A program made the position numbers and the translations under genes. This document shows positions 16,717-64,000 of a stretch of DNA of 64,000 bases, piece after piece (position 1 is the first letter of the stretch; each line of letters opens with the position of its first letter). This DNA is from Halothiobacillaceae bacterium UBA5861 (lineage in GTDB: Bacteria > Pseudomonadota > Gammaproteobacteria > UBA5861): positions 112-64,111 of the forward strand of contig DJFX01000012.1 in NCBI GenBank assembly GCA_002432635.1, given 5' to 3'. The notes below the pieces were generated by a model. It worked only from the letters and a program-made list of their open reading frames with translations. It was not told where the DNA came from and made no database searches.

Positions 16717-17364
16717 TCAGTCAATCCAATCGCCGCTGACTGGCTGAATTCCCGAATCCATCAGTCTTTTTAAATCCTCTGGCCGATCCAAGTCCCACGT
16801 TTCAGACAATTCATCCCAGCGCCACCTTAAAACCTGTAACCGGCTTCTTGTTTGCGCCATAACACGTTGTGTTCCCCACGCGATCTTCCAGAAAAGATAA
16901 GGGTGCACTTGCCTTAAGCCAATCAGGGTATAGCCGCCGTCCATTGCCGGGACAAACACGGCAGGCACGCGGTCCAACGACTGAATCGCAGACTGAAATG
17001 TTGCTTTGCTTAAGGCCGGGCAATCCGATCCAACAAGGATCACTTTACGATGAACGTTCAGCCCCTGTTGGAAAGCAAAATGCATACGCCCCCCCAAGTC
17101 AAAACCCTTCTGGCGATAAAAAGCAGCCTGATAGCGTTGTGCCAAGCATACAAAAAACGGCTCCCGGCGTTCGCCTTCTCCCCATATTTCCACATGTGCA
17201 TGGGATACCTCGCTGGCTGTCTTTAATGTTTTTTCCAGTAATTGGGTATGCAATCTGGCCGCCTGCGTGGGCGAAATAGCTTCAAATAAACGGGTTTTTA
17301 CCCGCCCCGCCTCGGGCTTTTTCCCAAAAACAATGATTTTTGCGCCTTTTAATCGGCAGTTCAT
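16717..17364 (-). CDS. TIGR04282/DUF2064-family transferase, the family that partners with ArsS-like radical SAM proteins
   Basis: GT-A-like nucleotide-binding N-terminus (KAKIIVFGKKPEAGRVKTRL) and a DGG motif. It is the last gene of the four-gene minus-strand operon. Confidence 0.6.
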   Translation of the reverse strand: MNCRLKGAKIIVFGKKPEAGRVKTRLFEAISPTQAARLHTQLLEKTLKTASEVSHAHVEIWGEGERREPFFVCLAQRYQAAFYRQKGFDLGGRMHFAFQQGLNVHRKVILVGSDCPALSKATFQSAIQSLDRVPAVFVPAMDGGYTLIGLRQVHPYLFWKIAWGTQRVMAQTRSRLQVLRWRWDELSETWDLDRPEDLKRLMDSGIQPVSGDWID

Positions 17365-18044
17365 CGGGTATTCCGGTAGCGTTGAGCTAACTGATGCGGG
17401 TCAGCGCCGAGATAGAACGCCAAGCGGAGACGCCACATCAGCCAGACGGTCTTGAAGATACCGTTCTGCTCCCAACGTCGGCTGGATGTCACCAAACGTT
17501 GTGATAAACACACGGGACGAGAGTGTGCCTTGGCCTGCTTTGAAAATTGAATGTCTTCCATCAGAGGCATGAGCGGAAACCCACCGATTTGCTCAAAAAA
17601 TGTCCGCATAACAAAGATGCCCTGATCTCCCGTCGCAATGCCACTCAGACGAGAGCGAAAATTTATCATGGTTTCAATGACCCTCAGCGGGCTATGGCTC
17701 CCAGATAAGCGGACATCAAAACGTCCCCAAGGTCGCCCTGTTTTTGTGACGGCCCCTTCGATTACGGCAGCACAATCTATAGGTGCTAGTGTATCGGCAT
17801 GTAAAAAACACAAAATATCGCCCTGGCTGGCGGTTGCGCCCCTGTTCATTTGCACAGATCGGCCCGCCGCTGACTGGATAATATGGTCAACGTACTCTCG
17901 GGCTAACGGAATTGTTTGATCCTGGCTGCCCCCATCGACGAGTACAATTTCATGCCCGTTTGCCCGCTCAGCTTGCAAGCAGTCCAGGGTTTTCTGAATC
18001 ACGGTCTCTTCATTCAAGGTGGGGATGATGAAACTCACCGTCAT
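17361..18044 (-). CDS. GT2 glycosyltransferase, TIGR04283-like
   Basis: IIPTLNEE start, D-G-GS-D and the GT2 DxD/ED motif. Overlaps the downstream gene by 4 nt. Confidence 0.7.
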   Translation of the reverse strand: MTVSFIIPTLNEETVIQKTLDCLQAERANGHEIVLVDGGSQDQTIPLAREYVDHIIQSAAGRSVQMNRGATASQGDILCFLHADTLAPIDCAAVIEGAVTKTGRPWGRFDVRLSGSHSPLRVIETMINFRSRLSGIATGDQGIFVMRTFFEQIGGFPLMPLMEDIQFSKQAKAHSRPVCLSQRLVTSSRRWEQNGIFKTVWLMWRLRLAFYLGADPHQLAQRYRNTR

Positions 18045-18444: not shown

Positions 18445-19407
18445 TTAACTCAACGCGCCGCCACAGCTCGACCCCTGGCCTGCCGTACACCCATAGCAAT
18501 GGTCCGCTGTGGCAATCGGCAACCCGTACAGCTTCGCCTCAATTAATTCTTTAATGTGCCTGCGCTTAAGTGCATTACCCGACAGAGGCATGTTTAACAT
18601 TTGATTAAAATCGCAATCATAGACATATCCATTGTAATCCACACTGATCGTCGTACGGCACATGACTTCTTCGAGATTATCGTCATTGTGAGACGATTTC
18701 AGCAGGGACATGTAGTCTTCAAACTGGCCGCGGGAAACCAGTGTGCTGCCAAAACGCTGAATCGGCAGGTTAGCCAGCACCAGCAGGGAGTTAAATGTGA
18801 CATCAAAATGCTCTGACAGATGGCTTTTATAATCGGCCTCCAGACCTGTTTGACCGGGAGGCAGCACCGGCCCTTGAGGGTTATAAACCAAATCCAGTAC
18901 AAGCCCGGAACCCGCTTTACCGTAGCCTAACTGATTCAATTTTTGTAGCCCACGGATGCTCGGCCAATACACATTTTTACCTCGTTGCGCTTTTACATTT
19001 TCTTCCAAATAGCAGGGAAGCGATGCAACGATGTGGATGCAATTTTCGGCCAAAAACTCAGCCAACGCTTCTTGTCCGGGCTCTTCGAGCACTGTCAGAT
19101 TACAGCGGTCGATAATGTGCATACCGAGGTTTTTCCCGGCCTCCACCAAGTAGTAAAACTGCGAGTTCAACTCGGGCGCTCCTCCGGTTAAATCGAGCGT
19201 TTTTACACCGCTGGCTTGCATAAACTCGATCACTTGATCGGCCGTTTTCCGGTCCATCATTTCTGTGCGTTTAGGTCCTGCATTGACGTGGCAATGCAAG
19301 CATGACAGGTTGCAGTAATAACCAAGATTGACCTGTATGACTTCTAAATGTGATCGTTTGATCGGAGGAAAATCAGAGACTTTGAGTAACGGGTAGGTAT
19401 CATGCAT
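18445..19407 (-). CDS. ArsS-like radical SAM protein (arsenosugar-type 5'-deoxyadenosyl transferase family)
   Basis: CNLSCLHC (CxxxCxxC) radical SAM motif near the N-terminus. The C-terminal Cys-rich tail HCYGCTAGQGSSCGGAL is characteristic of the ArsS/TIGR04167 family. Confidence 0.7.
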   Translation of the reverse strand: MHDTYPLLKVSDFPPIKRSHLEVIQVNLGYYCNLSCLHCHVNAGPKRTEMMDRKTADQVIEFMQASGVKTLDLTGGAPELNSQFYYLVEAGKNLGMHIIDRCNLTVLEEPGQEALAEFLAENCIHIVASLPCYLEENVKAQRGKNVYWPSIRGLQKLNQLGYGKAGSGLVLDLVYNPQGPVLPPGQTGLEADYKSHLSEHFDVTFNSLLVLANLPIQRFGSTLVSRGQFEDYMSLLKSSHNDDNLEEVMCRTTISVDYNGYVYDCDFNQMLNMPLSGNALKRRHIKELIEAKLYGLPIATADHCYGCTAGQGSSCGGALS

Positions 19408-19512: not shown

Positions 19513-21603
19513 TCAAGCGGGTTCGCTTTCAGCCGTGAGGGGATGGGGCAAGCCTAAGCGGTACCCTTGCCCATAATTGATGCCGATTTCCAGCAGCGCT
19601 TTTATGATTGGCTCACTACTGACATATTCAGCAATGGTTTTGACGCCCAAGGTGCATGCTACCGAGTGAATGGCTTCCACCACAGAGCGATCCACTGCAC
19701 TGTGTGTGATCGACTGTACTAAACGGCCATCAATTTTGATGTAATCGACCGGTAATTTTTTCAATGTGCCAAATGAGGAAAAACCCGTGCCGAAACCGTC
19801 CAGAGCAACCCGACAACCCAACTGTTTTAGCTCTGTGAGAAAAGGCAGAACAGAAGCCATATTACGAACAACGACCGTTTCATCGATTTCAAAGCAAATT
19901 TTGCTCGCAGGAACTTGATATTTATTCAGGTGTTGATGAATAAAACTGGGAAGTGTTTTATCGCTCACGACGGTTCCGGAAAGGTTAATCGACAAGCTAC
20001 TGACCGGCCTTTTATGCATCATCACCTCATTGAAATGATGAAATGCCTTGTCAATCACCCAGCGATCAATTTTTGTCATCACCCCGTATCGCTCAGCAGC
20101 AGGAATGAAGGACCCTGGAGGCAAGAGTTTGCCATCGTTACGGGGGCTCAACCGAAGCAGTATTTCGTAGAGCTCCACTCGGTTGTTTTTTTCAGGCAAT
20201 GACTTAATCGGTTGGCAGTACAATTCAAACCGGTTGTCTCTTAACGCCCGGTTGAGGTCAGAAACTTTTTGGTTCTCTGTCAGCCTCACTTTCCCCACCG
20301 GCTCGTCAGGGGTGTAAATTTGCAAGCGGTTGCGGCCTTTATCCTTTGCCTGGTAACAAGCTATATCGGCCTGGTGAATCAAGGTTTCTGTATCTTTTGC
20401 CAACACGTCAATAGTAACCAGCCCAATACTGCAACCCACTTCAAACGAATAATTTTCCCACGTGAAGCGAAAGTCACTGACGGTTTCAATTAAGCCCTGC
20501 GCCAGACGAGTCGCGCGATCAGGGGGGCAGTGCTCCAGCAATAACGCAAACTCATCCCCCCCGATCCGGGCCAAGGTATCCCGTCCACGGACCTGTCCTG
20601 ACAAAAGCGCCGTAAGCTGGCGCAAGAGTTCGTCACCGGCCAAGTGCCCCACAGTGTCATTGACAAGCTTGAAGCGATCCAGATCAATGTAACATAAGGC
20701 ATGCTCATACCCCCGCTCGCGGGCACCAGTGATGGCGACTTGCAACCGCTGTTCGAATTCCTCACGATTTACCAGGCCCGTTAAAGAATCATGAGTGGCC
20801 TGATAAGCAATTTTATTAGCGATCGCATTCCACTCAGTGACATCTGAAAAGAGCAACACAACGCCGCGCAATGAACCCTGGCTATCCAACATGGGAGAAG
20901 CTGTTTGCTGAATCGCGTATTCTTTCCCTTCCCGATTCAGCAAGATAACGGTGCCACAATTAATCTCTTTTCTTTGCGAAAGGCACGCCATGACCGGGCT
21001 GTCAATTTTTGCACCGCCAGGCTCTGCTGACAGGTGCATCACCTCATCAATCGCATGTTCGCTGACTTGATCAGCCAATACTGACAACAACCTTTCTGCC
21101 ACCGGATTAATGTATTGGATCTGTCCGCGTGTATCGGTGGCAATAATCCCGCTACTGACCGCCTGGCACATCAACTGAAAGCGCTCTTTCTCTAACGCCA
21201 GGATATCCCGCTCCTGAAGTGTCGCATCTTCATTGTTCAAACAAAGCAGGAGACAATACTGCTTTCCCTCTTTTATTCTCACCGCAGTCATGCCAACCTT
21301 AAGCCGTTGATGGCTCTCGGTATTCAAGCACTCGACAACTCGCCGGCCTGAGCAGCCTCTACGAATGGCAGTCACCAGCATTGACGCTACCGACGACTGC
21401 GCGTCTTCCGGGAAAAATGATTGAAATTGGCGCGCTTTTATTTGCGCAATCTCCAGGCCCAGCACCTGGGTTGCACTTGGACTCGCACAGAGTACCCGGT
21501 CGGATGCCGAATCTACCAACAAATAAACATCGCTGGCACAGCCAAACATTTGATCAAAAATGAGGTCCACCTGATCCGACCCACACAGAAGCTTATCTGT
21601 CAT
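19513..21603 (-). CDS. PAS-PAS-GGDEF-EAL c-di-GMP signalling protein
   Basis: GGDEF motif, EAL-domain motifs (ELYEILLRL, DDFGTG-like, QGY) and N-terminal PAS repeats. Confidence 0.9.
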   Translation of the reverse strand: MTDKLLCGSDQVDLIFDQMFGCASDVYLLVDSASDRVLCASPSATQVLGLEIAQIKARQFQSFFPEDAQSSVASMLVTAIRRGCSGRRVVECLNTESHQRLKVGMTAVRIKEGKQYCLLLCLNNEDATLQERDILALEKERFQLMCQAVSSGIIATDTRGQIQYINPVAERLLSVLADQVSEHAIDEVMHLSAEPGGAKIDSPVMACLSQRKEINCGTVILLNREGKEYAIQQTASPMLDSQGSLRGVVLLFSDVTEWNAIANKIAYQATHDSLTGLVNREEFEQRLQVAITGARERGYEHALCYIDLDRFKLVNDTVGHLAGDELLRQLTALLSGQVRGRDTLARIGGDEFALLLEHCPPDRATRLAQGLIETVSDFRFTWENYSFEVGCSIGLVTIDVLAKDTETLIHQADIACYQAKDKGRNRLQIYTPDEPVGKVRLTENQKVSDLNRALRDNRFELYCQPIKSLPEKNNRVELYEILLRLSPRNDGKLLPPGSFIPAAERYGVMTKIDRWVIDKAFHHFNEVMMHKRPVSSLSINLSGTVVSDKTLPSFIHQHLNKYQVPASKICFEIDETVVVRNMASVLPFLTELKQLGCRVALDGFGTGFSSFGTLKKLPVDYIKIDGRLVQSITHSAVDRSVVEAIHSVACTLGVKTIAEYVSSEPIIKALLEIGINYGQGYRLGLPHPLTAESEPA

Positions 21604-22033
21604 GGCCCAGACGCAACCACTCTGATTTTACGCCACAGAAGTGGGCGCTTTGGCAATGAATGGAAGCAATAGATGCTCTCGACACTGTGAAACTGGCAAC
21701 ACACTTCATTTCCCAACACAAATTTTCACCTCTTCAGTCAAAAAAGCCGAATGATCAGGTGCCCACCGTCCATGCTAGACCAGCCTATATTATTGTTTTT
21801 CAAGTAACTGACCGCTCAATTCTACACTATTCTAATAATAGACAACTATTATCGATAATTGGAAAACATATAAGCATCTGCTATCTGACACATGAAAACG
21901 TTTATCCTGATAAAATGCACGTTTGTACTTTTTTAATCATCACGGTGGAGTGATCTATGGCGCTTTGGTCAAAACTGGCCACCACCCATTAACTTAATAT
22001 GCCACGATAACAACAGACAAAACTCATTAACCT

Positions 22034-22909
22034 ATGCATTTAACCGCTCAAGCATTTCGCGCCTGGCGCAATAAACGTATCACCTTACTGGGCATGTCGG
22101 GTGTCGGCAAAACCCACCTATCCACCCAACTCAGATCGTATAACTGGTTCCATTACTCAGGTGATTACCGGATAGGTACCCGCTATCTTGACGAGGCGAT
22201 TCTCGACTTAATCAAACAACAAGCAATGAAAACGCCTTTTTTAAAGCAACTGCTGCGCAATGACTGGATTTATATCCGCAACAACATTCGAGTAGATGAC
22301 CTTGGCCCTGTGCTGAGCTTTGTAGGCAAACTGGGTAACCCTGAAAAAGGGGGCGTTGAATTGAGTGAATTCATGAGTCGGCAGGCCCAATACCGCTGTG
22401 CTGAAATTGAATCCATGCGAGATGTACCCGCATTTATAGAAAAGGCACAAACGGTGTACGGCTATCAACATTTTGTCAACGATGTTGGCGGCAGCCTGTG
22501 TGAACTGGATGAACCGGGCATCATTGAGTTACTAGCAAAACACACATTGATTATCTATATCAAAACCACGGGGCCTCAAGAAGAGGAGGTTTTAATCCAG
22601 CGTGCTCAGTCAGACCCTAAACCGCTGTACTACCGCCCTGCCTTTTTACAGGAGTATTTATCACACTATTTAAATGAAAAGGGGCTCCTGTACGCTGCGG
22701 AGATGGACCCTGATGACTTCACCCGCTGGATCTTCCCGCACCTGTTCCGGTCCCGGTTACCTCGCTACGAAGCGATCACTCAGGCTTATGGCTATACCGT
22801 CACATCACGCGACATAGCGACTTTACGGGACGAGCAAGACTTTTTACAACTGGTTGAAGCCGCCCTGGAAAACCCGGAAGGAAAGCAAGATGCCCCTGGT
22901 CGCACATAA
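22034..22909 (+). CDS. P-loop NTPase of unknown function
   Basis: N-terminal Walker A LLGMSGVGKTH. No further family recognised. Its 3' end overlaps the next gene by 20 nt. Confidence 0.55.
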   Translation: MHLTAQAFRAWRNKRITLLGMSGVGKTHLSTQLRSYNWFHYSGDYRIGTRYLDEAILDLIKQQAMKTPFLKQLLRNDWIYIRNNIRVDDLGPVLSFVGKLGNPEKGGVELSEFMSRQAQYRCAEIESMRDVPAFIEKAQTVYGYQHFVNDVGGSLCELDEPGIIELLAKHTLIIYIKTTGPQEEEVLIQRAQSDPKPLYYRPAFLQEYLSHYLNEKGLLYAAEMDPDDFTRWIFPHLFRSRLPRYEAITQAYGYTVTSRDIATLRDEQDFLQLVEAALENPEGKQDAPGRT

Positions 22910-23969
22910 CGCACTGCCCACGTTTGAAAAGCTTCATAAAGAAGGCCAAACCGTCCTCTCTGTCGACAAAGCACTCAATCAAGACATCCGGGACCTGCAC
23001 ATTGGCCTGCTCAACATCATGCCAGACACCGCCTTGGCCGCTACAGAGCGCCAATTCATGCGCCTTATTGGAAAAAGCAACCCCATTGCCCAGTTTTATG
23101 TCCACTTATTCACACTGCCTGAACTCAAACGCAGTGAGGACGCTCAGCAGCACATTGATGCCTACTACGAATCTTTTGAAGACATTCAGTCCCGAGGACT
23201 GGACTCACTGATTATCACCGGGGCCGCACCACAAAGCGAATCATTACCCAATGAGCCTTTCTGGTCGCCACTGTTCGAAGTCATTGACTGGGCGCACGAA
23301 AATGTCACATCAACACTTTGCTCATGCCTGACCACGCACGCCATACTTCAGGGGCGCTACCAACAGATGCGCAAGCCCCTGGTTCAAAAAGCCTGGGGCG
23401 TCTTCCCTCACTGGGTCACCAACAAGGAACACCCACTGGTCAGTGATATCAACACTCACTTCGACGTACCGCACTCCCGGTGGAACGCGGTCACGCGCAG
23501 CCAGTTCGATGCTGCTGGCCTGCATACGCTTGTCGAAAGTGAAACAGGTGTACACCTTGCCACCAGCCCCGACGGGATCCGTACGGTCTTCTTCCAAGGG
23601 CACCCCGAATACGATACGATCTCTTTATTGAAAGAGTACAAGCGCGAAGCACAGCGCTATGCCCGTGGCGAGGTAGAAATGCCTCCCGCGTTTCCGGAGC
23701 ACTATTTCAAGACACAGGAAAAAGCAATATTAACGGAATACATCGGCCGGCTGACAGACGCCCGACACGACAAACACAAGGCAATACCTGATTTTCCTGA
23801 AACCAAAATTGCCAAGCGATTACAAAACACATGGACGGATACAGCCACCGCTGTGATTGGCAACTGGATGGGCTGCGTCTACCAACTGACCCACCGTGAA
23901 CGGAAAAAACCTTTTATGGACGGCATCAACCCCAATAACCCACTCAAGCTGCCATTTGTGGCCGAATAA
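22890..23969 (+). CDS. Homoserine O-acyltransferase (HTS/MetA) family enzyme with a C-terminal extension
   Basis: Aligns to E. coli MetA across the catalytic core: LNIMPD, VTSTLCSC (nucleophilic Cys), FQGHPEYD (His/Glu of the triad), HSRW. It is about 50 aa longer than MetA. Confidence 0.7.
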   Translation: MPLVAHNALPTFEKLHKEGQTVLSVDKALNQDIRDLHIGLLNIMPDTALAATERQFMRLIGKSNPIAQFYVHLFTLPELKRSEDAQQHIDAYYESFEDIQSRGLDSLIITGAAPQSESLPNEPFWSPLFEVIDWAHENVTSTLCSCLTTHAILQGRYQQMRKPLVQKAWGVFPHWVTNKEHPLVSDINTHFDVPHSRWNAVTRSQFDAAGLHTLVESETGVHLATSPDGIRTVFFQGHPEYDTISLLKEYKREAQRYARGEVEMPPAFPEHYFKTQEKAILTEYIGRLTDARHDKHKAIPDFPETKIAKRLQNTWTDTATAVIGNWMGCVYQLTHRERKKPFMDGINPNNPLKLPFVAE

Positions 23970-23973
23970 CATC

Positions 23974-24594
23974 ATGGGATATACAATGCGAACACAGCCT
24001 ACTCTTCTTGCGCTGATCATGGCGCTTTTCATCCCTCTTGCCTGTGACGCTCAACTCACTCCCCTGGAGACCAGCCAACACTTTTGGCGCGCCATTGAGC
24101 AACGTGATATGGCCACACTCAAACTTTATGTAATGTCGCCTGGAACACTGAGCGATGAACCACAAAAACTGGCTGTTTCAGACATCACATTTGGCAAAAT
24201 TGTTATCGACGGAGATGCCGCGACCGTAGAAACCATGCTCACAATCCAGGACGACACCGCCTTTCGCACCCAGCTGGAAACCCAGCTTCAAAAAACAGAA
24301 GGCGCCTGGAAAGTCGATTATGATCGAACGATCAATAAACTTGCCCAAATGGACTCCAAAGAAAAAATGCTCGGCAACATCAAGGAGCTTGGAAAAATAT
24401 TGAGCGACAGCATCGACAGCTCGGTCCAGGAACTTCACAAGCAGTGGCCAGAACTCAAACGACAACTCGAAGAACTGGAAGAAAAAACCAAGGCAAAACT
24501 CCCTGAGCTTGAACAGAAACTTGATGAAATCCGTAAAAAAATTGAAGAAGGCTTTAAAAACCAGGAAGAAAAACCCGAAGGGCTATCCATTTAA
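23974..24594 (+). CDS. Secreted/lipoprotein with an NTF2-like (DUF4878-like) N-domain and a C-terminal coiled coil
   Basis: Signal peptide MRTQPTLLALIMALFIPLAC, then an SnoaL/NTF2-like region, then a heptad-rich KELEE tail. Starts 4 nt after the upstream stop. Confidence 0.5.
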   Translation: MGYTMRTQPTLLALIMALFIPLACDAQLTPLETSQHFWRAIEQRDMATLKLYVMSPGTLSDEPQKLAVSDITFGKIVIDGDAATVETMLTIQDDTAFRTQLETQLQKTEGAWKVDYDRTINKLAQMDSKEKMLGNIKELGKILSDSIDSSVQELHKQWPELKRQLEELEEKTKAKLPELEQKLDEIRKKIEEGFKNQEEKPEGLSI

Positions 24595-24816: not shown

Positions 24817-25884
24817 TTGAGACGCACAGAGAAAACCTTACTGGAGCAAATGCAGATCAGCGACGTGGAAATTGCACGGCGTATGGAGTTGTTAAATCTC
24901 GATAAAAACGCACTCGACCTGTTGTGTGGCCAGCAACGTCTTGTTGAAGAAAATATTGATGCCATCGTCGAAGAGTTTTACAAAAGACAAACAGAAATTG
25001 ACGAAATTGCACTACTCATCGGTGATGCCGACACATTAAGACGCTTACGCAACGCTCAACGTCAGTATGTCATCGACCTCTTCTCAGGGAACTGCAACAG
25101 CGAATATGTTAACAATCGCCTACGTATTGGAATGGTTCATAAGCGTATTGGGGTGGAGCCCAAACTTTACCTGTCCGCAGTCAAAACACTAAAAGAACTG
25201 GTCCTGAGGGTCTTAAAAGAAAATATCGAAAAAGAAACATTCCTAAAAGTCGCTGATGCACTGGACAAACTCCTTTACTTTGACACCACACTTGTCTTTG
25301 ACACTTACATTGACAGCCTGGTTGGGGAAATAGAGACCGCCAAAAAAAGAACCGAAGAATATGCCAAAAGCCTGGAAGACAAAGTAGCAGAAAGAACGAA
25401 GCAGCTCGAGGAGCAGGCCAAACTTGACCCATTGACCAATTTATATAATCAACGCGCAATGCAAGATGCCTTCAAACGGGAATTGGCCACGGCAAAGCGA
25501 CGGAGAAGTAAACTTTCACTGATCTATCTTGATATTGATTGCTTCAAAAAAATCAATGACGAATACGGTCATATCAGAGGCGATGAAGTCCTCAAACACC
25601 TCGGTAAAACGCTACTCAACACCATTCGTGAAATGGATATTCCCTGCCGATACGGAGGCGATGAGTTTTGCATCATATTGCCAGACTGTACCATTGAAAA
25701 TGCGCAGGAAGTTTCCAATCGAATCATCCATTCATTTTCTGAAAAATACCCGGAATTTTCGCTCAGCATCGGCATTGCTGAGACGGGATCGGAAGAATAC
25801 AGTGATGAAAATACACTGATAAAGTCGGCCGATAAGAAAATGTACCTGGCCAAAAAACAAACCGGCTCCTATATCTGCCACTAA
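24817..25884 (+). CDS. Globin-coupled sensor diguanylate cyclase (protoglobin-like N-domain plus GGDEF)
   Basis: N-terminal 160 aa with a proximal-His-type motif MVHKRIGVEPKLYL and a distal Tyr candidate (EEFYKRQ), a coiled-coil linker, and a GGDEF domain carrying an RxxD I-site. Start is TTG at 24817 (RBS GGGGA) or ATG at 24850. Confidence 0.65.
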   Translation: MRRTEKTLLEQMQISDVEIARRMELLNLDKNALDLLCGQQRLVEENIDAIVEEFYKRQTEIDEIALLIGDADTLRRLRNAQRQYVIDLFSGNCNSEYVNNRLRIGMVHKRIGVEPKLYLSAVKTLKELVLRVLKENIEKETFLKVADALDKLLYFDTTLVFDTYIDSLVGEIETAKKRTEEYAKSLEDKVAERTKQLEEQAKLDPLTNLYNQRAMQDAFKRELATAKRRRSKLSLIYLDIDCFKKINDEYGHIRGDEVLKHLGKTLLNTIREMDIPCRYGGDEFCIILPDCTIENAQEVSNRIIHSFSEKYPEFSLSIGIAETGSEEYSDENTLIKSADKKMYLAKKQTGSYICH

Positions 25885-30888: not shown

Positions 30889-31917
30889 ATGCAAAAACCC
30901 AATATTCCCAAGGATGAGCAATTCAGGCTTCAAACACTGCATTCGCTGAGCATTCTAGATACGCCCGCTGAAAACCGTTTTGACTGCATCACACGCATGG
31001 CTAAACGCTTGTTTAATGTGCCTATCGCGCTCGTCAGCCTGGTGGATGAAAACCGCCAGTGGTTTAAATCAAGTATTGGGCTCGAAGCCTCCGAAACACC
31101 TCGGGATATCTCTTTTTGTGGGCACGCTATTTTGAGTAAAGGTATTTTTATCGTTCCTAATGCCTTGGAAGATGAACGCTTTTCTGATAACCCTTTAGTG
31201 CTTAAAGATCCCTACATCCGCTTTTATGCAGGCTACCCGTTAAAAGCGCTCAATGGCCAGCAGTTGGGAACGCTGTGCCTGATTGACCGAAAGCCGAGAA
31301 CCTTGGATGACGGAGACCTTGCTACACTAAAAGACCTAGCTTCAACCGTCGAACGAGAGCTGGCCGCCATTGAGCTGGCCACAGTGGATGAATTAACGCG
31401 AGTCTCCAATCGGCGAGGGTTCTCTCTACTGGCAAGTCACTGCCTGCGGCTTTGCACCCGCCAAAAATTGCCTGCTTCCTTGGTCTACTTTGATCTTGAC
31501 AACTTTAAACCGATCAATGACCGGTTCGGGCACGCAGAAGGCGACAAAGCCCTGGTTGCCTTTGCTGATCAATTGAAAGGCGCCTGCCGGGATTCGGATA
31601 TCCCTGTACGCTTAGGTGGCGATGAATTTGCCTTGCTGTTAATCAATACAACTCTGGACATCGCCGAAGGTTTTATCAGTCGCTTCAAAGAGTCAGTAGA
31701 CACCTACAACGAATCCGTCAATCGTGGATACGATATTCTTTTTTCACATGGCATCGTCGCGTTTGATCATCAAAAACCCTCAACCATCCAGGAAATGCTC
31801 ACAGAAGGTGATGCAGAAATGTATCGACGGAAACAATTGAGAAAAAACCATTCGACGTGTGAGTCAACACAACCTGGCAATAAAGCCAGCGCTCATCATA
31901 TACAGCCCTTTATCTAA
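30889..31917 (+). CDS. GAF-GGDEF diguanylate cyclase
   Basis: N-terminal GAF domain, GGDEF motif and an I-site RxxD. Confidence 0.85.
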   Translation: MQKPNIPKDEQFRLQTLHSLSILDTPAENRFDCITRMAKRLFNVPIALVSLVDENRQWFKSSIGLEASETPRDISFCGHAILSKGIFIVPNALEDERFSDNPLVLKDPYIRFYAGYPLKALNGQQLGTLCLIDRKPRTLDDGDLATLKDLASTVERELAAIELATVDELTRVSNRRGFSLLASHCLRLCTRQKLPASLVYFDLDNFKPINDRFGHAEGDKALVAFADQLKGACRDSDIPVRLGGDEFALLLINTTLDIAEGFISRFKESVDTYNESVNRGYDILFSHGIVAFDHQKPSTIQEMLTEGDAEMYRRKQLRKNHSTCESTQPGNKASAHHIQPFI

Positions 31918-43563: not shown

Positions 43564-45279
43564 ATGATACCGGATACAACTGAGCTGAAAATTTCCAGTG
43601 GCCAAGCCAGTATCGCGGGGGTAAAAGATGTTAATGAAGATGCCGTAGGCATCCGAGTGCCCAAAGCCCCCTTGCTTCACAACAAGGGGCTGGCGGCGGT
43701 CATAGCAGACGGGGTCAGCACCGCTATTTCTGCCCGTGAAGCCAGTCATGTCTGCGTTAATAATTTTTTGTCAGACTACTTCGCGACGCCGGAAACCTGG
43801 ACTGTCAAAAAGTCCGCCCACACCATTCTGACGGCGCTAAACCGATGGCTCTACGGCAGCGGTCACAGCATGTACGGCACTTCGCGCGGCCTGGTCAGTA
43901 CCCTCAGTGCTCTCATTCTTAAATCCACCAGCGCTTATATCTTTCATATCGGTGATAGTCGCATATATCTCTATCGCAACGGCAGCCTTGAACCGCTGAC
44001 GCGCGATCACCGGACTCGCATATCCAATGAGCGCGAATACCTTTCCCGCGCTATGGGTGTCGAGCTGGAAATTGAAATCGACTACCACTCGCTCACGGTA
44101 GAAGCTGGTGATCTGTTTTTTCTTTGTACCGATGGTGTGTATGAATTCGTCGACGAAGCACACATCACACAGGCTATCGTCCAATCAACCAATCTGGAAA
44201 CATTAAGCCAGGAGATTGTTGATCTCGCCCTTGAAAAGGGCAGCAACGACAACATCAGCTGCCTGTTTCTCTCGGTAGATGCCCTACCCTTATTGGATGA
44301 AGACTCATTCTACCGCGAACTTACCACCCTGCCTTTTCCTCCCCCCCTGTCACCAGGTATGCAGCTTGATGGTTACCACATCGTCAGAGAAGTGCACGCC
44401 AGCAAACGTTCACAGGTATACCTTGTCTCTGATGAAGAAAGTAGCAAAAACTTCATCATGAAGACCCCATCCCTTAACTTCGAAGACGACCCACTTTATA
44501 TCGACCTTTTCCTTCATGAAGAATGGATTGGCCGCCGTATCAACAATCCCCACGTCATGCAGGTCATGGCGCCCCGGCGCCAGCGCACGGCTCTGTACAC
44601 AATCACCGAATATATTGAAGGCGACACACTGCGCCAGTGGATAGACCGCAATCCCAATCCGGCTTTACATACTGTACTCGGTATTGCTGACCAGCTGATC
44701 CAAGGGTTACGAACGTTCCAGCGCATGGAAATGATCCATCAGGATCTAAAGCCGGAAAACATCATGATCGACCGTTTCGGCACCTTAAAGATTATCGACT
44801 TCGGCTCAACCAAAGTGGCTGGTCTGGCCGAGCTGGTTTCACCCCTTGATCGGGAAGCCCTCCTCGGCACAGAAAGCTATACTGCTCCTGAGTACCTGGC
44901 CGGACAAATCACCAGCTTCCGCTCTGATATCTATTCACTGGGGACCATTATTTATGAAATGCTTTCCGGTCAATTACCCTACGGCGAAGCTTTAACACGA
45001 CACAACCTCAACCGCCTCGAATACCGCCCTTTACACCGGACAAACCCCAGTATACCTGTCTGGTTAGACGGCGCGCTGGCCAAAGCTGTTCAGAAAAACC
45101 CGGACCTCCGTTACAACAGCCTGTCAGAATTCCAGCAAGACCTGAAAACCCCAAACAAGAAATTCACCCAGGCACACGCCAAACCCCTGATTGAGCGCAA
45201 CCCGCTCCTGTTCTGGCAAAGTGCGGCTCTTTTATTCTTATTGCTAAATCTGATTCAAGGCATATGGCATTTAATCTGA
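43564..45279 (+). CDS. PP2C phosphatase / Ser-Thr protein kinase fusion protein
   Basis: N-terminal PP2C-like region (DGVSTA, DGVYEF, GSNDNIS). C-terminal Hanks-type kinase (HQDLKPENIM, DFG, APE) and a C-terminal TM helix. Confidence 0.75.
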   Translation: MIPDTTELKISSGQASIAGVKDVNEDAVGIRVPKAPLLHNKGLAAVIADGVSTAISAREASHVCVNNFLSDYFATPETWTVKKSAHTILTALNRWLYGSGHSMYGTSRGLVSTLSALILKSTSAYIFHIGDSRIYLYRNGSLEPLTRDHRTRISNEREYLSRAMGVELEIEIDYHSLTVEAGDLFFLCTDGVYEFVDEAHITQAIVQSTNLETLSQEIVDLALEKGSNDNISCLFLSVDALPLLDEDSFYRELTTLPFPPPLSPGMQLDGYHIVREVHASKRSQVYLVSDEESSKNFIMKTPSLNFEDDPLYIDLFLHEEWIGRRINNPHVMQVMAPRRQRTALYTITEYIEGDTLRQWIDRNPNPALHTVLGIADQLIQGLRTFQRMEMIHQDLKPENIMIDRFGTLKIIDFGSTKVAGLAELVSPLDREALLGTESYTAPEYLAGQITSFRSDIYSLGTIIYEMLSGQLPYGEALTRHNLNRLEYRPLHRTNPSIPVWLDGALAKAVQKNPDLRYNSLSEFQQDLKTPNKKFTQAHAKPLIERNPLLFWQSAALLFLLLNLIQGIWHLI

Positions 45280-56356: not shown

Positions 56357-57871
56357 ATGGACAACTACATCGAAAGAATCCTCTCGGCACGCGTCTATGA
56401 CGTTGCAATCGAGACCCCCCTGGAACATGCGCCTACACTATCCAAACGTCTGGGTAATGAGATCCTGCTGAAACGCGAAGATATGCAGTCTGTGTTTTCA
56501 TTCAAATGCCGTGGCGCTTATAACAAAATATTCAATACCTTGAAAAAACAGCCTGATTTACAAGGTGTCATCGCCGCGTCCGCAGGTAATCATGCGCAGG
56601 GAGTAGCCCAAGCCGCCGCGAAACTGGGCATTAAATCAATCATCGTGATGCCCAGAACAACACCGCAAATTAAAGTCAACGCCGTCAAAATGCTCGGCGG
56701 CAAAGCGGTTCTCTTCGGTGACACCTATGATGATGCCTATGCCCATGCCCGCCAATTGGAAGCTGAAAAAGGTTACAGCTTTATTCACCCCTTTGATGAT
56801 CCAGACACCATTGCCGGACAAGGCACGATCGGCCTGGAACTTTGCCGCCAACATCCGGATGATATACACGCAATTTTCATCCCGATCGGTGGTGGCGGGC
56901 TGGCTGCCGGTATTGCTGTGTTTATGAAGTATTTAAAACCAGAGACACGTATCATCGGCGTAGAACCTACTGACGCCAATGCCATGAATCGATCCTTGGC
57001 CGCAGGCCGGCGCATCACGTTGGATCAAGTGGGGTTGTTTGCCGATGGGGTCGCCGTCAAAAAAGTCGGAAAGAACTGTTTTGATTTGTGTCAACAGTAT
57101 GTGGACGACATTATTGAGGTCAATGTCGATGAAACCTGTGCCGCCATCAAAGATATCTTCGAGGATACCCGCACTCTGATGGAGCCGGCCGGCGCCATTA
57201 GTGTTGCCGGTATCAAAAAGTATGTTGAAAAAAATAACCTTCAAAAACAACAGCTGATTGCCATTACCAGTGGCGCGAATGTCAACTTTGACCGGCTTCG
57301 GCACATTGCTGAGCGTGCGGAAATCGGCGAAAATCGCGAAGCACTGCTGATGGCTGCTATTCCAGAACGCGTGGGCAGTTTCCGCCAGTTTTGTCAGGCT
57401 CTCGGAAAGCGGAATATTACGGAGTTCAACTACCGCTTTGCGAATAACGGTGAAGCACATATCTTTACTGGCGTTCAGTTACGGGGGGAACCGGACGAGC
57501 TGCCGGATCTACTCAAGCAATTAGAGCACAAAGGCTATGCGGTAACAGACCTGACTGGAGATGAAATGAGCAAATTGCATGTTCGCTATATGGTGGGCGG
57601 CCGTGCCACTGGCGTTTCTGACGAGCGCTTATTCCGATTCGAATTTCCAGAGCGGCCCGGAGCGCTTGCCGTATTCTTAAATACGTTGGGGCGTATGTGG
57701 AATATCAGCCTGTTTCACTACCGCAACCACGGGGCCGCTTACGGCCGTGTTCTGGCGGGTATTCAAGTCCCTGCTGAAGAAAGTTCGGCCTTTGAAGCCT
57801 CACTCAAACAACTGGGGTATGCCTACTGGGAGGAAACCCAAAACCCAGCTTATCAGGCCTTACTCAGATAA
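56357..57871 (+). CDS. ilvA: Biosynthetic threonine dehydratase IlvA
   Basis: PLP motif SFKCRGA and two C-terminal ACT-like regulatory domains. 504 aa. Confidence 0.9.
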   Translation: MDNYIERILSARVYDVAIETPLEHAPTLSKRLGNEILLKREDMQSVFSFKCRGAYNKIFNTLKKQPDLQGVIAASAGNHAQGVAQAAAKLGIKSIIVMPRTTPQIKVNAVKMLGGKAVLFGDTYDDAYAHARQLEAEKGYSFIHPFDDPDTIAGQGTIGLELCRQHPDDIHAIFIPIGGGGLAAGIAVFMKYLKPETRIIGVEPTDANAMNRSLAAGRRITLDQVGLFADGVAVKKVGKNCFDLCQQYVDDIIEVNVDETCAAIKDIFEDTRTLMEPAGAISVAGIKKYVEKNNLQKQQLIAITSGANVNFDRLRHIAERAEIGENREALLMAAIPERVGSFRQFCQALGKRNITEFNYRFANNGEAHIFTGVQLRGEPDELPDLLKQLEHKGYAVTDLTGDEMSKLHVRYMVGGRATGVSDERLFRFEFPERPGALAVFLNTLGRMWNISLFHYRNHGAAYGRVLAGIQVPAEESSAFEASLKQLGYAYWEETQNPAYQALLR

Positions 57872-58443: not shown

Positions 58444-58489
58444 AAGTCATTACGGAAGAAGTTTAAGCCTGGAGCGGGGGAGGAGGACG

Positions 58490-58668
58490 CTCTCCACGCG
58501 TGCCGCCGTTACTTTTGACCTTGAACCAGTCGGTTCAGGTGGGAGCCAATGGCCTGTATCAGGCTTTCCGCTCGTAGCGGACTTGCACAACAACAGACTG
58601 CATCAAGCACCCGGGTTTCGATATTAGGCTCAAGAGTACCCCAGTAACTAGCAAACACCGCAGATTGC
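58490..58668 (-). ncRNA. ssrS: 6S RNA (SsrS)
   Basis: The minus-strand sequence resembles the E. coli 6S RNA sequence as recalled from memory, especially its 3' half (ACCUGAACCGACUGGUUCAAGG..GUAACGGCGGCA versus E. coli ACCUUGAACCAAGGGUUCAAGGGUUACAGCCUGCGGCGGCA). It lies between zapA and ygfA, as in E. coli and Pseudomonas. The ends are approximate. Confidence 0.65.
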
Positions 58669-58688
58669 GCCCAAAACACAATACTCGG

Positions 58689-62650: not shown

Positions 62651-64000
62651 ATGGACACCAAAATACTACTGGCCGAATCAGATATGCCCACGCACTGGTA
62701 CAATGTCGTCGCTGACATGCCTACTCCGCCCTCCCCTCCTTTGGGGCCGGATGGCCAGCCCGTTGACCCGGCAATGCTCAGTGCGATTTTCCCAGAAGCC
62801 ATTATTCAACAAGAAATCAGCTCAGAACGCTGGATTGAGATTCCCAAGCCTGTGCGAGAAGCCCTCTATTTGTGGCGCCCATCTCCACTTTACAGAGCCC
62901 ACCGGCTCGAAAAGAAGCTGGGCACACCAGCAAAGATTTACTACAAAAACGAATCTATCAGCCCGGCTGGATCACACAAACCCAACACAGCGATTCCTCA
63001 GGCCTACTACAACAAACAGGCTGGGATAAAGCGGCTGACAACGGAGACAGGCGCTGGCCAATGGGGGTGTTCATTATCGCTGGCGGGCCAGATCTTTGGG
63101 CTTGATGTCAGAGTGTATATGGTAAAAGTCAGTTATGAGCAAAAGCCTTATCGTCGCTCAATGATGAAAACCTGGGGAGCAGAAGTTTTTGCCAGCCCCA
63201 CAAACATGACAGAAGCCGGCCGCAATGTGCTGGCAAAAGACCCTGACTCACCCGGCTCTTTAGGTATTGCCATTTCAGAAGCGGTGGAAGAAGCTGCTGG
63301 GCGAGAGGACACAAATTACTCGCTGGGCTCTGTGCTCAACCATGTCCTTCTGCACCAAACAATCATTGGCGAAGAAGCCAAAAAACAGCTGGCAATGGTG
63401 GGTGACTATCCTGATACGGTATTCGCACCCTGCGGCGGCGGGTCTAACTTCGGCGGCATCGCCTTTCCTTTTTTCGCGGACAAGGCAGCGGGCAAAGCTA
63501 TTGAATTAGTGGCCGTCGAACCCACGTCCTGTCCAACGCTGACCAAAGGCACGTACGCATACGATTATGGCGACGTAGCAGGCCTAACACCAATCATGAA
63601 AATGTACACGCTGGGACACGACTTTATGCCACCGGGGATCCATGCCGGAGGGTTACGCTATCATGGCGACTCCCCTTTAGTAAGCCAGCTCCACCACGAG
63701 GGTTTGATTAGCGCAGTCGCCATCCCTCAACTGGAAACCTTTCAAGCTGGTGTGTTGTTTGCTCAATCAGAAGGCATCGTGCCTGCACCGGAGTCAACCC
63801 ATGCCATTGCCGCTACCATCCGCGAAGCCAAACGCTGTATTGATACCGGCGAAAATAAGACGCTGCTATTTAATTTATCCGGGCACGGCCATTTTGATAT
63901 GACGGCTTACGATCGCTTTTTTGATGGCAGTCTGGAAGATTTTGAATACCCAGAGGAAGCAATCAAAGCTTCATTAGCCCATTTGCCGAATATTGGCTAA
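62651..64000 (+). CDS. TrpB2-type tryptophan-synthase-beta-like PLP enzyme
   Basis: PLP-lysine motif SHKPN, the GGGSN glycine loop and overall TrpB2 length (449 aa). The stop codon is at the window end. Confidence 0.75.

Follow-up and report, generated by a model that had tools for sequence, protein, structure and literature searches.

A P-loop protein family with a predicted shikimate-kinase-like fold, encoded beside metA in three classes of Proteobacteria

MetA acylates L-homoserine, the first committed step toward methionine. We describe here a metA gene that directly follows, and overlaps, the gene for a P-loop protein, in a stretch of 64,000 nucleotides from the gammaproteobacterium Halothiobacillaceae bacterium UBA5861 (contig DJFX01000012.1, positions 112 to 64,111; the whole stretch is called the window below). 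Among the proteins to which such a neighbor may be compared, MetW has a methyltransferase-like fold. Its gene, of unclear role, is adjacent to that of the homoserine acyltransferase MetX (PMC4239095). Homoserine phosphorylation offers a second set of comparisons: ThrB type II (APH fold), ThrH and HomK (TIGR02535) carry it out independently and are non-orthologous, HomK tending to sit near hom and thr genes (bioRxiv 10.1101/2024.10.14.618325). In Desulfovibrio vulgaris Miyazaki F the shikimate-kinase-like homoserine kinase DvMF_0971 replaces ThrB (PMC5764234).

The P-loop/metA pair resembles MetX-MetW in joining a homoserine acyltransferase gene to an adjacent gene of unclear role, but metW lies downstream of metX whereas the P-loop gene lies upstream of metA, and MetA is non-homologous to MetX. 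The P-loop protein gave no Pfam or NCBIfam match to MetW, and its predicted fold is that of a P-loop kinase. The folds of ThrB type II, ThrH and HomK are unrelated to it, and the P-loop gene sits beside metA where HomK keeps company with hom and thr genes. DvMF_0971, which we liken by its description, is a precedent for homoserine phosphorylation within the shikimate-kinase lineage, as proposed below for the P-loop protein; it is tied to threonine by genetics, whereas the P-loop family is tied to metA by context. The pairing was not described in the literature searched. MetA itself is already known, and what appears to be new is a family within the shikimate-kinase/nucleoside-monophosphate-kinase fold together with its standing as a conserved operon partner of MetA.

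Linkage of the P-loop gene with metA

A long metA lies immediately downstream in all 80 genome loci that we found with the window P-loop protein; these include Sedimenticola, Thiogranum, Thiohalobacter, Chromatiaceae, Thiotrichales, symbionts and many metagenome-assembled genomes. The reverse route, from long MetA proteins, led to loci of Thiobacillaceae and Chromatiaceae, where the P-loop gene likewise comes just before metA. When metagenomes were scanned with distant P-loop members only, 80 further loci were obtained, 68 of them evaluable (at least 400 nt downstream); metA was present in 65 of these 68 and directly adjacent in 62. Overall, both genes occur in 159 of 174 loci, and 10 of the 15 lacking metA end less than 200 nt past the P-loop gene, so that metA follows in 159 of 164 evaluable loci. 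The gap between the two genes, taken across 156 loci, has a median of 12 nt, and the genes overlap or lie within 30 nt of each other in 116 of the 156. The pairing spans Alpha-, Beta- and Gammaproteobacteria, with Thiobacillaceae, Hyphomicrobiales, Paracoccus and Pseudorhodobacter (Rhodobacterales) among its carriers, while the genes flanking the pair are not conserved among loci. The Paracoccus locus is annotated as an ATPase gene, a homoserine O-succinyltransferase gene overlapping it by 1 nt, and ppk2, in this order; a Paracoccus homologue of the P-loop protein is WGR63701.1 (E3U26_23945).

We conclude that the P-loop gene and metA very probably form a conserved functional two-gene module. 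A meaningful coupling of the two had been suspected in a first-pass annotation of the window, and its retention across three proteobacterial classes bears this out. That annotation had named coincidental adjacency of the cell's MetA and an unrelated housekeeping ATPase as the outcome that would deprive the pair of interest. The generic database name of the P-loop protein would fit such a coincidence, as would the MetAs of E. coli and Sinorhizobium meliloti, which work without such a partner; but with metA following in nearly every evaluable locus, amid variable flanks, we give coincidence hardly any credence.

The window MetA matches Pfam HTS (PF04204) at residues 2-335 (E 1.4e-82, 277.5 bits, cutoff 27) and NCBIfam NF003776 ("PRK05368.1-3") over profile positions 1-351 of 353 (482.8 bits, cutoff 358). 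As the first-pass annotation had it, then, the product is, judged by these full-length matches, a genuine MetA, and specifically one of the long subfamily. E. coli-type MetA is about 30% identical to it. Alignment to the structures 2ghr, 2h2w, 6mtg and 7cbe served to assign the catalytic residues: Cys146 (nt 23325-23327) falls on Cys142, the nucleophile in the MetA structures from B. cereus, T. maritima and E. coli, and the GHPEYD motif (nt 23598-23615), which contains His238 and Glu240, aligns with GHSEY/GHPEYD of the solved MetAs. The LNIMPD motif (nt 23010-23027) and a PHSR motif are also kept. The extra length of about 50 residues that had been reported at the C-terminus is real; it consists of an insertion of about 40 residues at about residues 270-305 plus a short tail, relative to MetAs of about 305 residues. 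It is not the oddity it had seemed, since NF003776 covers the protein end to end, making this the standard architecture of long MetAs. The alignment to solved MetAs accordingly ends at about residue 271, and a second short stretch corresponds to the conserved C-terminal "W...NW...YQ" segment.

Where E. coli MetA reads MPKK--IETE, the window MetA reads MPDTALAATE, with a 2-residue insertion and both lysines replaced. These are Lys46 and Lys47 of the E. coli enzyme, which we take to have a role near the active site. The Paracoccus partner MetA retains MPKK, and from the alignment the loss in the window MetA is a subfamily difference that leaves its NF003776 membership unaffected. At position 111, presumably a determinant of acyl specificity, the aligned window residue is Gln; the NF003776 model name says "succinyl", and the acyl donor is not readable from the sequence. 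No second metA, no metX and no thr genes were found by Pfam scans of 31 of the 61 non-overlapping window open reading frames (ORFs) of at least 100 residues, the 31 being the larger ones.

Partner MetAs of the P-loop gene are of two classes, the long form (NF003776) and a short form of about 305 residues, which are only about 30% identical to each other. Short-form loci belong to Alphaproteobacteria (Hyphomicrobiales and Rhodobacterales). This class was scored on NCBIfam in two representatives, from Paracoccus (L172 6903-7829) and from locus L090 (4914-5858), and both scored best on NF047918 "MetA_acetyl", with 460.2 and 455.2 bits against a cutoff of 460.5. Because the P-loop gene pairs with two such deeply diverged MetA classes, the factor shared by its partners would be the acceptor, homoserine, and not the acyl donor. 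The two short-form MetAs are annotated "O-succinyltransferase" although they score best on the MetA_acetyl exception model, and their acyl specificity may be misnamed.

Five evaluable loci lack metA. Two of these are metK-metG-P-loop loci (L091 1196-4927 and L092 1864-5894), in which a P-loop gene of a clade 42% identical to the window protein follows metK (S-adenosylmethionine synthetase) and metG (methionyl-tRNA synthetase). The others (L083, L084 and L129) are in unrelated or uninformative contexts, and L129 has only about 620 nt downstream of its P-loop gene. Conversely, a chromosome record of S. meliloti encodes a MetA that shares 59% identity with the Paracoccus one and gives no match to the P-loop protein, so MetA can work without the P-loop partner.

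Candidates for natural P-loop-MetA fusions were rejected: P0204, P0212 and P0254 are frameshifted gene calls, and P0206 is chimera-like. The last is a 660-residue protein in which a stretch 69% identical to window residues 67-164 lies inside a sulfotransferase-type protein, probably through an assembly chimera. Two distant members (P0188 and P0248, at L081 4001-5092 and L082 725-1816) have an additional C-terminal tail of about 80 residues with an HTH_3 domain (XRE-type helix-turn-helix), and their genes lie directly upstream of an HTS gene.

Several neighbors recur within lineages. A ppk2 (polyphosphate kinase 2) gene follows metA in 13 alphaproteobacterial loci, including that of Paracoccus (L172 7832-8749), and 18 alphaproteobacterial loci have a gene for an EamA-family transporter ahead of the P-loop gene. 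In two Thiobacillaceae loci (L085 3024-10198, and L086) the pair appears to share an operon with a COG0523/cobW gene that lies upstream, the intervening gaps being 30 and 12 nt. The surroundings there form a Zur-type zinc-starvation cluster, with a single-Cys DksA paralogue, a FUR-family regulator, a ZIP transporter, a second cobW and a PRA-CH/DUF1826 gene. A general link of the pair to zinc was rejected, the association being lineage-specific: homologues of cobW, Zur, ZIP and dksA occur in none of the 80 gammaproteobacterial loci.

Fold, active site and candidate roles of the P-loop protein

The Walker A motif of the P-loop protein, GMSGVGKT, occupies residues 20-27. The first-pass annotation could not place the protein in any kinase family, and no curated family was found for it here. 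Pfam (2025 copy) gave nothing at E<=0.01 and only noise over the Walker A segment at E<=10, and the Pfam model for shikimate kinase, SKI (PF01202), did not match even at E<=10. NCBIfam release 20 also gave only noise, the best match being IstB with 16.9 bits against a cutoff of 300; this match is limited to the Walker A segment, and an AAA+/IstB identity was rejected. The single sequence searched against PDB sequences returned only noise. There are at least 8000 homologues in the protein collection, named "ATPase" or "hypothetical protein" where named at all. When 1.84 billion cluster representatives were searched exhaustively, 585 clusters matched at E<=1e-3, and these proteins thus constitute a distinct family.

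An AlphaFold2 model based on a diverse alignment (29-76% identity) has a predicted local distance difference test score (pLDDT) of 94.4 and a predicted template-modelling (TM) score of 0.89; it supersedes an earlier run on a shallow alignment (pLDDT 69.5). When the model was compared with PDB by Foldseek, shikimate kinases ranked first, AroK 1kag being best (E 1.5e-5), and target-normalised TM scores were 0.5-0.64 for 1e6c, 3vaa and 2iyz; dephospho-CoA kinase and adenylate kinases came next. Profile comparison agrees with the structural one. The family profile matched E. coli AroK by hmmsearch (E 9e-4) in three collinear pieces, and hhalign aligned the family to the same protein over 150 columns with collinear motifs (E 5.6e-5). 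In this alignment D44 falls on the second Asp of YDSD, R116 and E124 fall in the FRDRE segment, and G152-G153-S154 matches GGG, K196-P197 the lid RP, and R241-x-P-x-Y-E (R241 to Y245-E246) RNPLYE. Relative to the AroK motifs, the family has GGS instead of GGG and K instead of R in the lid. Invariance was assessed in 147 unique family sequences, 35-97% identical to the window protein: K26, D44, E124, D150, G153, S154, K196, P197, R241 and Y245 are the same in all 147, and at position 116 Arg occurs in 141 sequences and His in the other 6.

Shikimate kinases (AroK/AroL; 1kag, 2iyz) are thus the best fold match, with the Walker A motif, substrate Asp, glycine loop, lid and R-x-P-x-Y-E helix all collinear. 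They differ from the P-loop protein in being about 170 residues long and encoded in the context of aro genes, whereas it has 291 residues and is found with metA (159 loci). It shows only 12-16% structural-alignment identity to them and lies outside the Pfam SKI model, and no solved structure closer than about 15% identity was found. Its additions are an insertion of about 60 residues at about residues 50-110, in the substrate lobe, and C-terminal helices. By alignment and model, the P-loop protein is a relative of shikimate kinase, divergent in sequence and larger. The sites for ATP and for a hydroxy-carboxylate substrate look intact, and on the strength of these motifs the protein is rather likely to be a small-molecule kinase.

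As a tentative assignment, we propose that the protein is an alternative, non-orthologous homoserine kinase. It would be a catalytically intact, ATP-dependent small-molecule kinase of shikimate-kinase descent, and its substrate would most likely be L-homoserine, the same molecule that MetA uses; homoserine is a candidate because no other ligand is shared by the two MetA classes. In this scheme Mg-ATP would be bound by Lys26/Thr27 and Asp150, with Lys196-Pro197 supplying the lid residue in place of the Arg-Pro of shikimate kinase; the substrate carboxylate would be contacted by Arg116 and Arg241, and Asp44 would activate the phosphate-receiving hydroxyl. Such an operon would produce together, in many cases through translational coupling, the kinase that leads homoserine toward threonine and the acyltransferase that leads it toward methionine, and so partition flux at this branch point.

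There are pathways in which such an enzyme may be wanted. Phaeobacter inhibens and Dinoroseobacter shibae (Rhodobacterales) are without any known homoserine kinase (PMC7311316). In P. inhibens thrC is essential, and therefore a missing thrB analogue would be invisible in fitness data. In GapMind 2026, 16 prototroph genomes, 8% of prototrophs, remain without an identified thrB (bioRxiv 10.1101/2024.10.14.618325). The P-loop family is present in other Rhodobacterales (Paracoccus and Pseudorhodobacter). A search with E. coli ThrB of a plasmid/chromid collection gave no Rhodobacterales match, chromids alone being uninformative on this point. That this family supplies the missing homoserine kinase in Rhodobacterales and in other prototrophs with the thrB gap, and that the pair is a "homoserine branch-point operon" widespread but unrecognised in Alpha-, Beta- and Gammaproteobacteria, is an extension of the proposal that we regard as doubtful.

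Several observations weigh against a homoserine kinase. Genes of the threonine pathway are scarce near the pair: a tblastn search with E. coli ThrA, ThrB and ThrC located thrC within 5 kb in only 2 of the roughly 170 loci and did not find hom or thrB in any. The P-loop gene is nearly absent away from metA, where a stand-alone kinase for threonine synthesis should also occur in metX-type genomes and near thr genes. The metK-metG-P-loop loci fit a methionine-centred role better, unless O-phosphohomoserine serves methionine synthesis there. The HTH tail occurs in some distant members. In gammaproteobacterial loci the P-loop protein is 67-77% identical and MetA 58-69%, and for a simple pathway kinase to be more conserved than its neighbor is unusual. 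Finally, many Proteobacteria show no thrB gap (bioRxiv 10.1101/2024.10.14.618325).

Much of this would be accommodated if the protein were instead an accessory or regulatory partner dedicated to MetA, binding or phosphorylating it and thereby making MetA activity or stability responsive to ATP and to a metabolite of the pathway. MetW with MetX provides an analogy, as does PSRP, a P-loop regulatory kinase encoded beside its target ppsA. In the variants with an HTH tail, metA transcription would come under the control of this same sensor domain; these variants still lie directly upstream of an HTS gene. The near-exclusive linkage to metA, maintained over deep divergence and with both MetA classes, and the short gaps and overlaps speak for such a partner, gene order conserved over such depth being typical of physically interacting proteins. 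So does the higher conservation of the P-loop protein, for which the mean column identity is 80% among gammaproteobacterial members. Close MetA relatives function without it, which suggests an accessory and not a catalytic role, and searches of pair loci for riboswitches, MetJ boxes and MetR boxes found nothing (see below), so another control input is plausible. Against this stand the invariant residues, whose alignment to the small-molecule site of shikimate kinase points to catalysis on a hydroxy acid and not to a protein-directed role, the metK-metG-P-loop loci, with no metA in the 5 kb on either side, and the failure to find natural fusions of the two proteins. We regard a dedicated MetA partner as the chief rival to a homoserine kinase, and as only slightly less probable.

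The same active site, with its resemblance to that of shikimate kinase, could serve a different methionine-related hydroxy-carboxylate, for instance a compound that arises by salvage, repair or damage in the branch of homoserine, O-acylhomoserine or S-adenosylmethionine. The informative genomic contexts of the gene are always methionine genes, either metA or metK with metG, and an EamA-family exporter gene stands upstream in 18 alphaproteobacterial loci. No result indicates a specific substrate, however, and we know of no pathway gap that this kinase would fill, whereas homoserine is the simplest ligand that it could share with MetA. A kinase for another substrate is therefore an unlikely reading, and L-homoserine remains the substrate that we tentatively assign.

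The locus in the window and its surroundings

In the window, three ORFs on the same strand follow a 430-bp spacer: the P-loop gene, metA, and a gene for a protein with a signal-peptide-like start and a coiled-coil tail (Table 1). The ORF coordinates and motifs, the 20-nt overlap of the first two ORFs, the 4-nt gap before the third and the AT-rich spacer, all reported in the first-pass annotation, are present as described, with small corrections. By its sequence, the junction of the P-loop gene and metA is a translational-coupling junction.

Table 1. Coordinates of the metA locus and of other features, as positions in the window
Feature	Position	Strand	Remarks
Divergent intergenic spacer	21604-22033	none	430 bp; 40.7% GC; ORF-poor
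P-loop kinase-like ORF	22034-22909	+	291 residues; Walker A at nt 22091-22114; predicted shikimate-kinase fold
Predicted coupling junction	22876-22909	+	Shine-Dalgarno-like GGAAGGAAAG at 22876-22885; MetA ATG at 22890; P-loop TAA at 22907-22909
Long-form MetA	22890-23969	+	359 residues; Cys146, His238/Glu240; Pfam HTS, NF003776
Signal-peptide and coiled-coil protein	23974-24594	+	206 residues; ATG 4 nt past MetA stop
Glycosyltransferase-like gene	17361-18044		adjoins radical SAM/DUF3641 gene
Radical SAM protein	18445-19407	-	DUF3641 C-terminal domain
PAS-GGDEF-EAL gene	19513-21603	-	flanks the spacer
Protoglobin-GGDEF gene	24817-25884	+	globin-coupled sensor
GAF-GGDEF gene	30889-31917	+
PP2C phosphatase/Ser-Thr protein kinase ORF	43564-45279	+	phosphatase domain N-terminal, kinase domain C-terminal
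ilvA	56357-57871		threonine dehydratase
6S RNA (SsrS)	58487-58669	-	85.5 bits
TrpB-like pyridoxal-phosphate enzyme	62651-64000	+	NF009057, 730 bits; runs past window end

The spacer is poorer in GC than the window as a whole (50.6%). It is flanked by divergent genes, the PAS-GGDEF-EAL gene and the P-loop gene, and is a divergent promoter region that presumably holds the promoters of both. No consensus sigma-70 site was found on its plus strand. In many gammaproteobacterial relatives a conserved -10-like TGCATAAT(C/A)A element is present about 35-40 nt before the start codon; since it lies so close to the start, it suggests a short untranslated leader in these relatives. The spacer had been taken for a regulated leader, a view that the searches do not favor. 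A permissive Rfam scan of positions 21400-22200 gave no riboswitch, its best match being irrelevant (E=4.1), Rfam at gathering thresholds gave no match upstream of the pair in 26 related loci, and patterns for MetJ, MetR and Zur-like boxes were absent from all 78 upstream regions. The sole Rfam match at gathering threshold in the window is the 6S RNA. A guanidine-II (mini-ykkC) riboswitch occurs on a Hyphomicrobiales-like contig (L127 1655-1705, plus strand), about 3.3 kb upstream of the P-loop gene and unrelated to the pair.

The third ORF has an ATG at 23974 and a second at 23986, and encodes a hydrophobic N-terminus, MGYTMRTQPTLLALIMALFIPLACDA, followed by a charged tail of coiled-coil type. 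These two parts of the earlier description stand, but the NTF2-like domain does not: profile scans gave only weak coiled-coil matches and a sub-threshold match to Rv0361_Cterm (22 bits, cutoff 37). By tblastn, a homologue was found in 1 of about 175 related loci, that of a 97%-identical genome (L001). The secreted protein may be cotranscribed with the pair in the window, yet it is a lineage-specific, incidental neighbor outside the conserved module. This bears on the proposal that the three genes, behind a regulated leader, form a paralogous acyl-transfer module of nucleoside triphosphatase, ping-pong acyltransferase and exported acceptor or binder. The window genes are indeed contiguous, and no terminator-like site was found between them. 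Downstream neighbors differ in the other loci, however, MetA passes the NF003776 equivalog cutoff, and no riboswitch was found, so a three-part module is highly improbable.

Three genes of cyclic di-GMP signalling, namely the PAS-GGDEF-EAL, protoglobin-GGDEF and GAF-GGDEF genes, are found inside 12 kb and flank the metA locus on both sides. The radical SAM/DUF3641 gene adjoins, in addition to the glycosyltransferase-like gene, a small glyoxalase-like ORF. A single ORF combines PP2C phosphatase and Ser/Thr protein kinase domains. Toward the window end lie ilvA and the gene for a TrpB-like enzyme.

What the family may mean

The P-loop family has many thousands of members, almost always encoded beside metA, and has neither a curated family nor a name beyond "ATPase". 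Paracoccus denitrificans carries the pair, on chromosome 2 and followed by ppk2, and is a tractable host. Should the protein prove to be a homoserine kinase, it would help to close one of the four commonest remaining gaps in amino acid pathway annotation and so improve the prediction of auxotrophy. Should it prove to be a partner of MetA, it would place an ATP-dependent control on the first committed step of methionine and S-adenosylmethionine synthesis, in parallel to the MetX-MetW pair, long without explanation.

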